This document shows, piece after piece, positions 46,521 to 48,788 of a stretch of 64,000 nt of DNA; position 1 is the stretch's first letter, and every line of letters begins with the position of its first letter. Both the position numbers and the translations under genes were made by a program. The notes below the pieces were generated by a model. The model saw nothing but the letters and a program-made list of their open reading frames with translations. It did not search any database and was not told where the DNA came from. The DNA is from an uncultured delta proteobacterium (GTDB taxonomy: Bacteria; Myxococcota_A; UBA9160; JAFDET01), in contig CAMYLJ010000012.1 in NCBI GenBank assembly GCA_947259215.1, positions 15,589 to 79,588 on the forward strand. Reading direction: 5' to 3'.

Positions 46521-46604
46521 CTAGGAGCCTGACCCAAGATGGGGCACACCGTCCGGACGCCGAGACGCCCGGACGGCGCACCCCATCTTGGGTCATGCTC
46601 CTAG
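46521..46604. repeat. 84-nt imperfect palindromic intergenic element bounded by CTAG
   Basis: CTAGGAGCCTGACCCAAGATGGGGCACACCGTCCGG...CCGGACGGCGCACCCCATCTTGGGTCATGCTCCTAG. It fills the gap between convergent genes, and the right CTAG holds the stop of the OmpA-like gene. It shares GACCCAAGA/TCTTGGGTC with the 74-nt element. Confidence 0.85.
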
Positions 46605-47674
46605 AGCGGCTCCGGCACGCCCCGCGGATAGGTCACCACGATCACGCTCTGGTTGATGCGCTGCGCCCCCTGGCTGCGCCAGGTGTCCTCGAGCCCGTAT
46701 TCCTTCGCCACGCGTTGGTCGATCTGGGGCGGCTCCCAGCCGAGCCACAGGGCCTCGATGCGGTTCCCCGCCACGCCCTTCGCCACCAGCGCGTCGCGCA
46801 CCGCCAGGGCCCGCTGGCCCGAGAGGCGCCGGTTGTAGCGCAGGTCGCCGATCTTGCTGGCGCGCCCGATCAGGAGGACCTTGTCCTCGGGGCGCGCGTC
46901 GAGCCGCTCCGCCACGTCGGCCAGGATTCCGCTCTCGAAGCCGGCGTCGACGTCGGCGCTGTCCAGCTCGAAGCCCACGATGCCGTGGGGCAGCCGTGCC
47001 ACCGAGAGCACGTGGCAGCGCACGAGGGTCGCGACCAGCGGCGCGCAGAAGCTGCGGCACTCCGCGATCTGCTTCAGGTAGTCGGCGTAGGACACGGAGT
47101 TCGCGCGGATGAAGTCGCGGTGCTCCTGCATGTGGGCAGCGGCGGCTTCCATCACCGCCGCGTCCTCGACGCCCGTCGCCCGCTGGAGCGTCTCCACCGA
47201 GAGGTTCATCGCCTCGGCCTTGCACTCCCGCTCCAGCAGCGGGTTCGCGTCCTTGGTGACCGCCAGGGCCTGGAACCAGCCGGGCCGCCCCGGCGGGCCC
47301 GGGAAGTCGACCTTCTCCTCGCCGCCCGGGCGGCCGCGCACGGCGTCGCCCGTCTCGAGGAACTCGTCGATCAGCGACTCCACCTCGGGCGCCTGCTGCA
47401 CGCCTGCGCCACAGGGGTTGCACGGATTGCACGGGTTGGCGCCGCGCTTGCCGCACGGGTTGCAGGGGTTCGCCTTCCCGCGCGCGCAGGGGTTGCACGG
47501 ATTCGCCTTGCCCGCGCACGGGTTCGTCTTGCCGGCACACGGATTGGCCTTCGCCGCACAGGGATTGCGGGGCTGCTCCCAGGGCGCCCGCGGCGCCTGG
47601 GCGTGGCTGGTGGAGATGGCCAGCAGGACCCCGAGGAGACCTGCCAGCACCGCGGCGCGTTCACTCTTCCACAT
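46601..47674 (-). CDS. secreted OmpA-C-like peptidoglycan-binding protein with an N-terminal NPC cysteine-repeat region
   Basis: Signal peptide ending SHA-QA. Ten NPC triplets occupy aa 37-88. The C-terminal [32 protein letters not shown] is an OmpA-like motif. Confidence 0.75.
   Translation of the reverse strand: [357 protein letters not shown]
47411..47566 (-). repeat. coding tandem repeat (NPCAxKx / NPCNPC units)
   Basis: It encodes [52 protein letters not shown]. Reiterated GGGTTGCA(C/G)GG units are visible on the plus strand. Confidence 0.9.
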
Positions 47675-48152
47675 GGTTCTCGAACCTCTCTCGCAGGGCA
47701 GGACTCTGCCAGTCCTGCTCGCCGAACAGGCGGTCCACCACCCGACCGTCGCGCCCCAGGATCGCGGTCCCGGGAACGCCCAGGATCGCGAGCCGGTCGC
47801 GCAGCTTCGCGTAGGGATCGAAGTAGACCGGGAACGGGAGCTCGTGCTCCCTCAGGAAGTCGCGCAGGTCGCTCTCGCGCACGTCGTTGCTCACCGTCAG
47901 GAGGGTCAGCCCCTTCTCGCGCAGGGCCGGGTAGGCCTCGCGATGGAACGCCACCAGCGAGGGCAGCTCCCGCGTGCAGGGGTCGCACCAGGTGGCCCAG
48001 AAGTGCACCAGGACGACGCGCCCCGCATGGCTCTCGAGCGCAGGCAGCCCGTCCTCGTAGGCAGACTCCGCCCGAGCCGCGCCGGTTCCGGCCAGCAGCA
48101 GGCACGCCGTCCACGCGAGGCTGCGGGCGAGGCGTGCGCCGTGGCCGGCCAT
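47661..48152 (-). CDS. TlpA/ResA-family periplasmic thiol-disulfide oxidoreductase
   Basis: Signal peptide, a thioredoxin fold with the WCDPC active site, and VPGTAILGRDG. It overlaps the downstream NPC-repeat gene by 14 nt. Confidence 0.8.
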   Translation of the reverse strand: MAGHGARLARSLAWTACLLLAGTGAARAESAYEDGLPALESHAGRVVLVHFWATWCDPCTRELPSLVAFHREAYPALREKGLTLLTVSNDVRESDLRDFLREHELPFPVYFDPYAKLRDRLAILGVPGTAILGRDGRVVDRLFGEQDWQSPALRERFENHVEE

Positions 48153-48203
48153 CGGGCGGGTCCTCCGTGCAGCCCCTCACTGCGGGCGCTGGCGGGGTCG
48201 GAG

Positions 48204-48788
48204 CTAGCGCGAGCCCGACGCATCGGGGACGCGGTAGACGCGCGGCCCCTCCAGCTCGCGGGTCGTCGGGTCTTCATGGGACTCCTCGGCGGGAGCCGCT
48301 GCCAGAGGGTAGATGATCACCTCCTGGCGCGGTTGCGGCGGGGGCGGAGCGGACACCGGGGGCGTGGGCGGCGGCGCCTCGGCCTCGCGGGACTGCTGGT
48401 CGTGGAGCCGAAGCTGCTCCTCGAGGTCGCGCTCGCGCGCGTCTTCGGCGCCGACGCTGCGGGGATCGGGCTCGTCGCACCAGGGGATCGCCACGATCAC
48501 GTTACCGATGCGGCGCATCACGCGCGTGGACGTGGGGTACGGGCAGCCCGCGCCGGAGAGGGCCTGCCGGATGGCGGCCCGGCGTTGGATCCGGGCCACC
48601 GCGCTGCGCCTGATCTGGGCACTCCTGATCTGGGAGCGGCTGATCTGGGAGCGCGCGACGCTGGGCCCGGCGAGGTAGGAGCGAGTGTACGAGGCCGTGA
48701 CGGGTGGCGAGGGCAGGCGGAACGCGCAGCCGGTGGCGGTCGTGAAGGTCAGCAGCAGGATCAGGGACGCCCAGGAGCCGGGGGGCAT
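48204..48788 (-). CDS. hypothetical lipoprotein (Pro-rich)
   Basis: The lipobox is LLLTFTTATGC. An SQISRSQIRSAQIR repeat and a PPPTPPVSAPPPPQP tract are present. No recognisable domain. Confidence 0.5.
   Translation of the reverse strand: MPPGSWASLILLLTFTTATGCAFRLPSPPVTASYTRSYLAGPSVARSQISRSQIRSAQIRRSAVARIQRRAAIRQALSGAGCPYPTSTRVMRRIGNVIVAIPWCDEPDPRSVGAEDARERDLEEQLRLHDQQSREAEAPPPTPPVSAPPPPQPRQEVIIYPLAAAPAEESHEDPTTRELEGPRVYRVPDASGSR

Follow-up and report, generated by a model that had tools for sequence, protein, structure and literature searches.

A gene for a TlpA/ResA-type thiol:disulfide oxidoreductase and a gene for an OmpA-like protein of 357 amino acids overlap on the minus strand of a 64-kb window (the whole stretch of DNA that was analysed, from contig CAMYLJ010000012.1 of an uncultured delta proteobacterium, with a G + C content of ~72%). 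The two genes belong to a conserved pair: a TlpA-type gene is located directly upstream of the OmpA-like gene in all 20 distinct contexts that were compared, and it is very probable that the TlpA-type protein is functionally coupled with its OmpA-like partner. The conserved core of that partner consists of a helical four-cysteine domain and a divergent OmpA_C-like domain. In the window protein, the core is preceded by an array of ten Asn-Pro-Cys (NPC) units, and this array is found in a minority of the family. The genes and domains in question are the following.

48204–48788, minus strand: probable lipoprotein gene, 194 amino acids (open reading frame; G + C content at third codon positions, GC3, 0.92)
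47661–48152, minus strand: TlpA/ResA-type gene, predicted exported thiol:disulfide oxidoreductase, 163 amino acids (Pfam and NCBIfam matches; GC3 0.90)
46601–47674, minus strand: gene for the OmpA-like protein, predicted to be exported, 357 amino acids (signal peptide, NPC array, helical four-Cys domain and OmpA_C-like domain; GC3 0.95)
47594–47674, minus strand: Sec-type signal peptide of the OmpA-like protein, residues 1–27, with the cleavage motif AQA-P, identified by inspection ([27 protein letters not shown])
47411–47566, minus strand: NPC array of ten units, residues 37–88 ([52 protein letters not shown])
46976–47398, minus strand: helical domain, residues 93–233, with the near-invariant residues C151, H181, C206, C210 and C220 (AlphaFold2 model and conservation)
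46625–46969, minus strand: divergent OmpA_C-like domain, residues 236–350 (PF00691 and Foldseek)

An earlier note on this DNA had described three tightly linked minus-strand genes, and their coordinates, the 51-nt gap between the lipoprotein and TlpA-type genes (48153–48203) and the 14-nt overlap of the TlpA-type and OmpA-like genes (47661–47674) were all found to be exact. The OmpA-like gene thus opens 14 nt before the TlpA-type gene ends. Likewise, the signal peptide, the ten NPC units, the four additional cysteines and the OmpA_C domain are all present in the 357-residue protein. The GC3 values of the three genes are typical of coding sequence in a window of this G + C content.

Pairing of the TlpA-type and OmpA-like genes

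The search for homologues of the 357-residue protein among 5.8 billion proteins returned 38 full-length relatives with 27–97% identity, and conservation counts were taken over ~94 family members. The region common to all 38 relatives extends from approximately residue 93 to the C-terminus. From the signal peptide up to residue 93, the relatives differ in both length and composition, and this stretch is the most variable part of the family. The scan of one genome per GTDB species revealed 17 true family loci in Binatia, Myxococcota, Lysobacterales, Wenzhouxiangellaceae, Ectothiorhodospiraceae and Methylomirabilales MAGs (metagenome-assembled genomes). The nearest named relatives of the window protein come from Myxococcota MAGs and are 53% identical to it.

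A TlpA homologue was present immediately upstream and on the same strand in every one of the 16 genome loci with enough upstream DNA, which belong to Binatia, Myxococcota, Lysobacterales, Wenzhouxiangellaceae and Ectothiorhodospiraceae. The same gene lies upstream in P0003, a relative with 59% identity (loci L051/L052), where the 14-nt overlap is identical to that of the window, and in the close relative L054, where the overlap is also 14 nt. In the most divergent case, P0037 (35% identity; locus L072), a TlpA-like protein of 525 amino acids ends 45 nt upstream. These loci and the window make up the 20 contexts, all of them with a TlpA-type gene directly upstream, and no TlpA-like gene was found in any of 21 unrelated control loci. 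The search for other conserved neighbours gave none, as the recurring clusters consisted of shadow open reading frames of the two genes or of clade-specific genes (fumarase and unknowns). Since the TlpA homologue is always upstream and no other neighbour is conserved, the functional unit is a two-gene cassette. The view of the thioredoxin-fold gene as the partner of the OmpA-like gene, put forward in the earlier note, is therefore borne out in all 20 contexts. The obligate pairing of TlpA and helical/OmpA-like genes appears to be undescribed.

The same note had gone further and had seen in the TlpA-type protein the obvious redox partner for the NPC array; the results do not support this part. 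No NPC units were found in 14 of the 16 TlpA-linked genome loci, and only 19 of the ~94 family members (~20%) carry at least three units. Because the pairing is universal and the arrays occur in only about a fifth of the members, the TlpA linkage belongs to the conserved core and not to the repeat.

The TlpA-type protein matches the Pfam families AhpC-TSA (4e-15), Redoxin (1.8e-11) and Thioredoxin_8 (4e-11). Its active site, WCDPC, occupies residues 55–59 (C56 and C59; 47976–47987), and inspection of the N-terminus revealed a hydrophobic signal or anchor. The best NCBIfam matches were ResA (2e-20), StoA and TlpA (1e-12). All bit scores fall below the equivalog or subfamily cutoffs, with 73.4 against 170 for ResA, 59.4 against 210 for StoA, 48.2 against 230 for TlpA and 36.3 against 123 for DsbE, and the protein is classified here as a relative of the ResA/StoA/TlpA/DsbE families that is a member of none of them. 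The partner TlpAs share the motif FWA(S/T)WCxPC (W[AC]xWCxPC) and the C-terminal motif GxQ(D/E)WxSxxF. The 525-residue partner in L072 (4378–5955) has in addition an N-terminal extension of ~380 residues that is helical- and repeat-looking.

The pair resembles the TlpA/ResA/CcmG reductases in the predicted export, the thioredoxin fold, the WCxPC site and the presence of a Cys-bearing partner encoded next to the enzyme. The few known clients of TlpA-type proteins are apocytochromes c, Sco, CoxB and Msr; in Bradyrhizobium, the clients of TlpA are ScoI and CoxB, and in Bacillus the client of ResA is apocytochrome c. Unlike in these systems, the partner in the window is not a cytochrome, Sco or CoxB protein but a novel helical domain joined to an OmpA-like domain. 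The enzyme itself also differs from TlpA and ResA, as its subfamily has a C-terminal motif of its own and its scores are far below the equivalog cutoffs.

The 194-residue protein encoded upstream has a plausible lipobox, TATGC, with the cysteine at residue 21, which by inspection alone fits the looser PROSITE-style pattern, and its n-region contains neither Lys nor Arg. Only three homologues were found, all of them full-length (86, 82 and 65% identity), the protein is confined to four sequence clusters, and neither Pfam nor NCBIfam gave a match. The lipobox cysteine is kept in the three homologues, and two further conserved cysteines occur in the motifs GCPYP and IPWC. L054 shares with the window both the order of the genes (SIS, lipoprotein, TlpA, OmpA-like and the convergent acyl-CoA dehydrogenase gene) and their spacing, with gaps of 27 nt and 51 nt and an overlap of 14 nt. 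No copy of the lipoprotein gene precedes TlpA in L051/L052 or in any of the 16 genome loci, and as a general member of the cassette the gene is ruled out beyond a narrow lineage. The earlier note had counted it as part of the unit; with three homologues of 65–86% identity, and with the gene already gone from the nearest wider relative, it has no such general place. Judged by its sequence, the lipoprotein gene is real and a lineage-specific addition.

These results leave little room for the model of the earlier note as a whole, in which TlpA would serve the NPC array as its dedicated reductase, within a unit of three genes that exists for the sake of that array. The genes are tightly linked in both the window and L054, and some NPC proteins outside the family have Redoxin genes near them or a thioredoxin fusion, as the model would have it. 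Nevertheless, the universal pairing set against arrays in ~20% of the members, the confinement of the lipoprotein to four sequence clusters and the lack of a TlpA-like neighbour beside most NPC genes elsewhere largely refute it, and we regard it as very improbable.

The remaining genes around the cassette in the window are listed below.

48816–49691, minus strand: SIS-domain (MurQ-like) gene (Pfam SIS, SIS_2 and GKRP_SIS_N)
45309–46520, plus strand: acyl-CoA dehydrogenase gene, convergent with the OmpA-like gene
49709–52138, plus strand: MutS2 gene, divergent from the SIS gene
44234–44680, plus strand: small open reading frame with a sub-threshold match to phasin, a polyhydroxyalkanoate granule protein (26.6 bits against a cutoff of 28.8)

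The distance from the end of the SIS gene to the lipoprotein gene is 27 nt, and an identical gap is present in L054. The MurQ-like SIS gene is presumably of the N-acetylmuramic acid-6-phosphate etherase type. The SIS, lipoprotein, TlpA-type and OmpA-like genes may form a transcription unit of four genes, in which a cell-wall recycling enzyme is joined to the OmpA-like protein. In more distant relatives, the SIS gene is unlinked to the cassette. The scan of positions 46300–50000 detected no promoter-like or terminator-like sites.

Core domains of the OmpA-like protein

The AlphaFold2 model of the full 357-residue protein, built with the family alignment, has a mean predicted local distance difference test (pLDDT) value of 81.8, and residues 93–350 are mostly above 90. 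The helical domain modelled alone reached a pLDDT of 84. No Pfam match to this domain was found even at E values up to 10, and the Foldseek comparison of the isolated domain with the PDB gave nothing significant (best E = 0.37, with a template modelling (TM) score <0.3). The exhaustive HMMER scan of 1.84 billion representative sequences with residues 93–233 recovered only 56 clusters at E ≤1e-3, and wherever the sequence is complete, the domain precedes the same OmpA-like domain. With no relative in Pfam, NCBIfam or the PDB, the helical four-Cys domain appears to be undescribed.

The cysteines and the histidine of this domain are almost invariant in the family: C151 is present in 91 of 94 members, H181 in 91 of 92, C206 and C210 each in 92 of 93, and C220 in 89 of 92. 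In P0038 and L016, the two members that lack either residue, C151 and C220 are both missing. This indicates a C151–C220 disulfide, and the two residues probably form a structural bond of this kind. The other two cysteines lie in the motif EC[RK]xFC[AG]P. Because C151–C220 is read as a disulfide, C206/C210 is the best candidate for a redox-active or metal-binding site served by TlpA, and this core pair, rather than the array, is the likely TlpA client. The invariant C-x3-C-x-P arrangement recalls, as we see it, the CxxxCP copper site of Sco proteins.

The C-terminal part of the protein matches PF00691 over residues 236–321 (E = 2e-12; 47.7 bits against a gathering cutoff of 27.2). When the full model was compared with the PDB using Foldseek, only the last ~120 residues gave matches, and all of them were OmpA_C-like domains, including those of OprF (5u1h), Pal (1oap), 4g4w and AbOmpA (3td3), with E values between 1e-7 and 1e-6 and target-normalised TM scores of 0.78–0.85. 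The pLDDT across this region of the model is above 90. The domain shares with Pal, the C-terminal domains of OprF and OmpA, YiaD and YfiB the PF00691 match, the fold and the YNxxLSxxRA motif with its Arg. The window protein differs from the OmpA and Pal types in that it has neither a beta-barrel nor a lipid anchor, and its OmpA-like domain is preceded by the unrelated four-Cys helical domain.

The ligand-binding site is also changed. The motif of the domain is GRASKIG...[10 protein letters not shown], with Ser273 at the place of the canonical Asp and the canonical Arg kept as R288; in the alignment to OmpATb, GYTD pairs with GRAS. Compared with the Pal/OprF/OmpA type, the family thus has Ser instead of the Asp of GxTD and Arg instead of His or Tyr (GRAS), as well as NQSV in place of NRRVE and GWEPPQ in place of GxGExxP. 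At position 273, Ser is found in 86 of 91 members and Asp in none of them, and R288 is kept in 88 of 89. Work on the Acinetobacter OmpA and Pal domains reportedly identified the Asp/Arg pair as a clamp for diaminopimelate. As the canonical Asp is replaced by Ser family-wide, peptidoglycan binding cannot be assumed for the OmpA-like family, and the description of the domain as peptidoglycan-binding in the earlier note was given too firmly.

NPC arrays in the family and on other exported proteins

In the array of the window protein, the Asn residues are located at positions 37, 44, 51, 58, 61, 69, 72, 80, 83 and 86, which corresponds to spacings of 7, 7, 7, 3, 8, 3, 8, 3 and 3 residues, and the array includes three CNPC (CxxC) pairs and one CNPCNPC. 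Only 11 NPC tripeptides occur in all six frames of the 64-kb window, and 10 of them lie inside this 52-residue segment. The array is predicted to be disordered, with pLDDT below 50 over residues 20–64 and means of 10-residue blocks near 50 up to approximately residue 90. The ten units are encoded by six different 9-mers, which differ only in synonymous positions, so that N-P-C is unchanged. All four AAT and all three TGT codons of the OmpA-like gene are located inside the array; outside it, Asn is encoded by AAC in six of six cases and Cys by TGC in four of four. GC3 is 0.87 within the array and 0.96 elsewhere in the gene (Fisher p = 0.012). This atypical codon usage may reflect selection against perfect DNA repeats.

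The close relatives are near-identical to the window protein outside the array and carry rearranged arrays, with 10 units in P0001 and 8 in L054. The arrays therefore evolve by gain and loss of whole units, with the N-P-C motif preserved. The members without an array carry acidic, Pro-rich or His-rich linkers at the same place.

The homologue search also returned more than 80 proteins that match the repeat only and have long NPC or CNPC arrays after the signal peptide, often at the C-terminus as well. Altogether, over 100 other exported proteins bear the NPC module, which can sit at the N- or the C-terminus or make up a stand-alone protein. The domains flanked by arrays include a small monohaem cytochrome c (PF21342 / CCP_MauG-like), cytochrome P460, YceI and LysM; arrays are also borne by a YHS-domain protein (P0089), by a thioredoxin domain to which the array is fused directly (P0111) and by a membrane-protein loop (P0118). 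The search with the repeat alone revealed stand-alone proteins of 65–97 amino acids, secreted or lipidated, which consist of little more than a signal peptide and an array. Where the sources give names, these proteins are called 'hypothetical protein' or 'cytochrome c domain-containing protein'. The arrays occur in high-GC and low-GC genomes, and as they are present in low-GC DNA, they are no GC artefact. A second flavour of the repeat, of nine residues (TLNPCAAK(T)), forms long arrays on some of these same proteins (P0045, P0153 and L071 677–1981) and gives a compositional match to Cornifin.

Scans of array-rich proteins with Pfam and NCBIfam found no curated repeat family for the arrays, only compositional Cornifin matches. 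The literature search found no paper with repeat strings such as [19 protein letters not shown] for a Gram-negative protein, and nothing relevant was found in the literature on periplasmic metallothionein or on cysteine-rich OmpA. The statement of the earlier note that it knew of no characterised NPC-repeat protein has to be qualified: as the only precedent found, a 6xNPC repeat had already been noted, though not dissected, in the self-assembling cysteine-rich C. difficile exosporium protein CdeC (PMC7677010). CdeC resembles the window protein in having an Asn-Pro-Cys run in a cysteine-rich envelope protein (PMC7677010). It differs in belonging to the spore coat of a Gram-positive organism, in lacking a signal peptide context and in the shortness of its repeat, outside which it has no homology to the window protein. 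That exported redox proteins widely carry the NPC module as an appendage appears to be undescribed.

If the array were a neutral low-complexity linker, its units would have arisen by repeat expansion and length drift, and only the core and TlpA would matter. The N-terminal region is indeed the most variable in the family, being acidic, rich in Pro, rich in His or of the NPC type in different members; ~80% of the members have no array, and the array differs in unit number between close relatives and is predicted to be disordered. However, N-P-C is perfect in ten units despite the synonymous differences and the atypical codons, the motif recurs on more than 100 unrelated exported proteins from high- and low-GC genomes, and all but one of the NPC tripeptides of the window lie within the array. 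We consider neutrality improbable, and by these sequence patterns the array is conserved at the protein level and is not neutral filler.

The module was recovered in 123 proteins and 211 arrays. The composition over the 211 arrays is 21% Cys, 20% Pro, 20% Asn, 18% Ala, 8% Lys and 4% Gly, with 0% aromatic and 0.5% acidic residues. The commonest spacing of the units is that of CxxC: a distance of 3 accounts for 954 of the 2049 unit-to-unit spacings. In many arrays, the NPC units stand singly, 6–9 residues apart, and there is no CxxC pair (P0089, P0132 and P0148). In the parity count, which covered 215 arrays, 115 had an even and 100 an odd number of units. The absence of a parity bias argues against obligatory pairwise disulfides, and an even unit count was rejected as a sign of such pairing, being uninformative or negative.

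These numbers bear on the main rival explanation for the array, in which it is a disulfide-stapled spacer or cross-linker. The small disulfide loops of CNPC or intermolecular disulfides would give a rigid rod or a covalent envelope mesh, comparable to CdeC or to the proteins of cornified envelopes, with TlpA as isomerase or regulator of the cross-linking. The Asn-Pro dipeptide favours turns, the CxxC spacing is dominant, the unit counts of the three close relatives are even (10, 10 and 8), and the array replaces an ordinary disordered linker in the OmpA-like family; the Pfam Cornifin matches, compositional as they are, and the self-assembly of CdeC with its 6xNPC repeat (PMC7677010) point in the same direction. 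Against these stand the unit counts over all arrays, which show no pairing constraint, the many arrays without any CxxC pair and the co-encoded enzyme, which is of the reducing CxPC type and not DsbA/DsbC-like. We regard a spacer or cross-linker as unlikely; a neutral linker, a dedicated TlpA substrate and a scaffold for post-translational modification are less likely still.

Outside the family, the TlpA profile detected a TlpA-like gene near the NPC gene in ~3 of 22 distinct contexts, compared with 0 of the 21 control loci, which is too weak to claim a general TlpA association of NPC genes. The metagenome DNA-pattern scan for arrays yielded 17 contigs, mostly short, that were scanned for TlpA-like genes only. 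The neighbours with a possible bearing on function are as follows.

L043/L044: Redoxin gene directly upstream of the NPC gene
L064/L071: Redoxin-like gene ~440 bp from the nearest array
L039–L041: Redoxin gene ~3 kb away
L042 (4789–5784) and L046 (4030–5004): DUF3179 gene directly upstream of two unrelated array proteins, of the cytochrome P460 and cytochrome c types
L046: DsbD-like fusion nearby
L049: CcdA and thioredoxin, CzcCBA, MauE and NrsF nearby
L047: ArsR-type regulator nearby
L045: CtaG/Cox11 nearby

Some forms of DUF3179 are selenoproteins with a UxxC/T motif (PMC9312934), and a thiol-redox function is suggested by this. Many NPC contexts have no thiol-redox or metal-related neighbours. 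The neighbour hints favour a thiol-redox or metal role for the arrays but do not establish one.

The NPC genes are also clustered, with three to four array genes, including those for proteins of 80–95 amino acids, within 4 kb (L039 6001–9994; L064 and L071), and in L039, L064 and L071 these clusters adjoin genes for multihaem cytochromes. Both L071 (677–8780) and L039–L041, which have a very different G + C content, contain Redoxin/TlpA-like, FGE-sulfatase-domain (FGE, formylglycine-generating enzyme) and BNR/Sortilin-like genes and several c-type cytochromes. The set in L039–L041 also includes a CarboxypepD_reg protein (Pfam).

The cysteines of the arrays could also be modified enzymatically, either by FGE-type conversion of Cys to formylglycine or by the MNIO (multinuclear non-haem iron-dependent oxidase) or radical S-adenosylmethionine (SAM) chemistry of the kind seen in bufferins and HvfA. 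Enzymes of the FGE family modify the Cys of CxPxR, a motif to which CNPC(A/R) bears a loose resemblance. An FGE-sulfatase-domain gene lies a few genes from P0042-like NPC proteins in L039–L041, and another is found beside an NPC-flanked cytochrome c in L071, in an unrelated lineage of very different G + C content. On the other side, neither the surroundings of the window gene nor any of the 20 family contexts contain an FGE, DUF692/DUF2063 or radical-SAM gene, and maturase genes were not seen in most other NPC contexts. Maturases of the type that acts on ribosomally synthesised and post-translationally modified peptides (RiPPs), namely DUF692/MbnB-like, DUF2063 and radical SAM, were absent from the approximately nine NPC contexts with Pfam-labelled genes, and no NCBIfam RiPP-precursor model matches the arrays. 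Such modification is the least probable of the explanations weighed for the array.

The stand-alone NPC proteins of 65–97 amino acids resemble HvfA (with its 'EGKCG' repeats) and the bufferins in that all are small and exported and have repeated Cys motifs. Unlike HvfA and the bufferins, the NPC proteins have no MNIO (DUF692)/DUF2063 partner in the examined contexts and no match to an NCBIfam model.

Proposed function of the cassette

In the reading that we prefer, a TlpA/ResA-type reductase and a soluble periplasmic helical/OmpA_C-like protein form a conserved and translationally coupled two-gene cassette. The reductase would act on the cysteines of the helical domain, most likely C206/C210, and keep this pair reduced or reshuffle it. 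Together with H181, the reduced pair could form a redox or metal site in a protein docked at the cell wall. In the lineage of the window, the variable disordered N-terminal linker has become the ten-unit NPC array, which would serve as an accessory, thiolate-rich tail to trap soft metals or to buffer oxidants. Such a tail would profit from the co-encoded reductase, yet it would not be the reason for the presence of that enzyme. The analysis shows the gene structure, the domains, the universal TlpA pairing, the pattern of conservation, the predicted disorder and the conservation of the NPC units at the protein level; we infer the redox direction, the client cysteines and any binding of metal or peptidoglycan. 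As a whole, a reduced Cys site maintained by TlpA in the core, combined with an accessory metal-binding or redox-buffering thiol-rich tail, is in our estimation close to an even chance but short of it; the role of the array as an accessory tail for soft-metal capture or oxidant buffering is, taken by itself, plausible and tentative.

Several observations weigh against this reading. The arrays are strongly basic, and binding of anionic envelope polymers fits this equally well. The CNPC pairs may simply form disulfides in the oxidising periplasm. His-rich flanks, which would favour metal binding, are present in only 11 of the 211 arrays and were rejected as a general metal-binding signature, though they do occur in a few family members and stand-alone proteins. 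With ~3 of 22 contexts positive for TlpA, the arrays are generally without a dedicated reductase. Moreover, the family-wide change of Asp to Ser makes the anchoring to peptidoglycan uncertain.

The comparison with known thiolate proteins is compositional only. The NPC arrays resemble the metallothioneins and the Cys-based copper stores of the periplasm (SmtA/BmtA, MymT and Csp1) in being Cys-rich, with CxxC spacing, many Lys, Ala and Gly residues, no aromatic and few acidic residues. The example of Csp1 shows that metal storage by Cys thiolates exists outside the cytoplasm. The Cys content of the arrays is 21%, compared with ~30% in classical metallothioneins, and the obligatory Asn-Pro before Cys is no metallothionein feature. 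A further difference is that the arrays carry Sec-type export signals, are predicted to be disordered and are appended to other domains.

The system draws on parts of known kinds, namely a reductase of the TlpA type, an OmpA-like domain and Cys-rich low-complexity sequence. It may be that the arrays are widespread disordered exported thiol modules, metallothionein-like or acting as a relay, and that the cassette is at the same time a new cell-wall-associated device for redox or metal sensing or handling; taken jointly, we consider these two statements possible rather than probable. If they are true, TlpA-type periplasmic reductases would gain a new dedicated client, and this client would contain a new protein domain attached to an OmpA-like domain whose ligand-binding Asp is replaced family-wide. 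The Cys-repeat tails of exported redox proteins would also emerge as a large class that lacks annotation, and a profile of the NPC motif could annotate hundreds of 'hypothetical' proteins. The NPC tails could then give cells a general means of retaining soft metals in the oxidising periplasm, or of donating or taking up reducing equivalents there.

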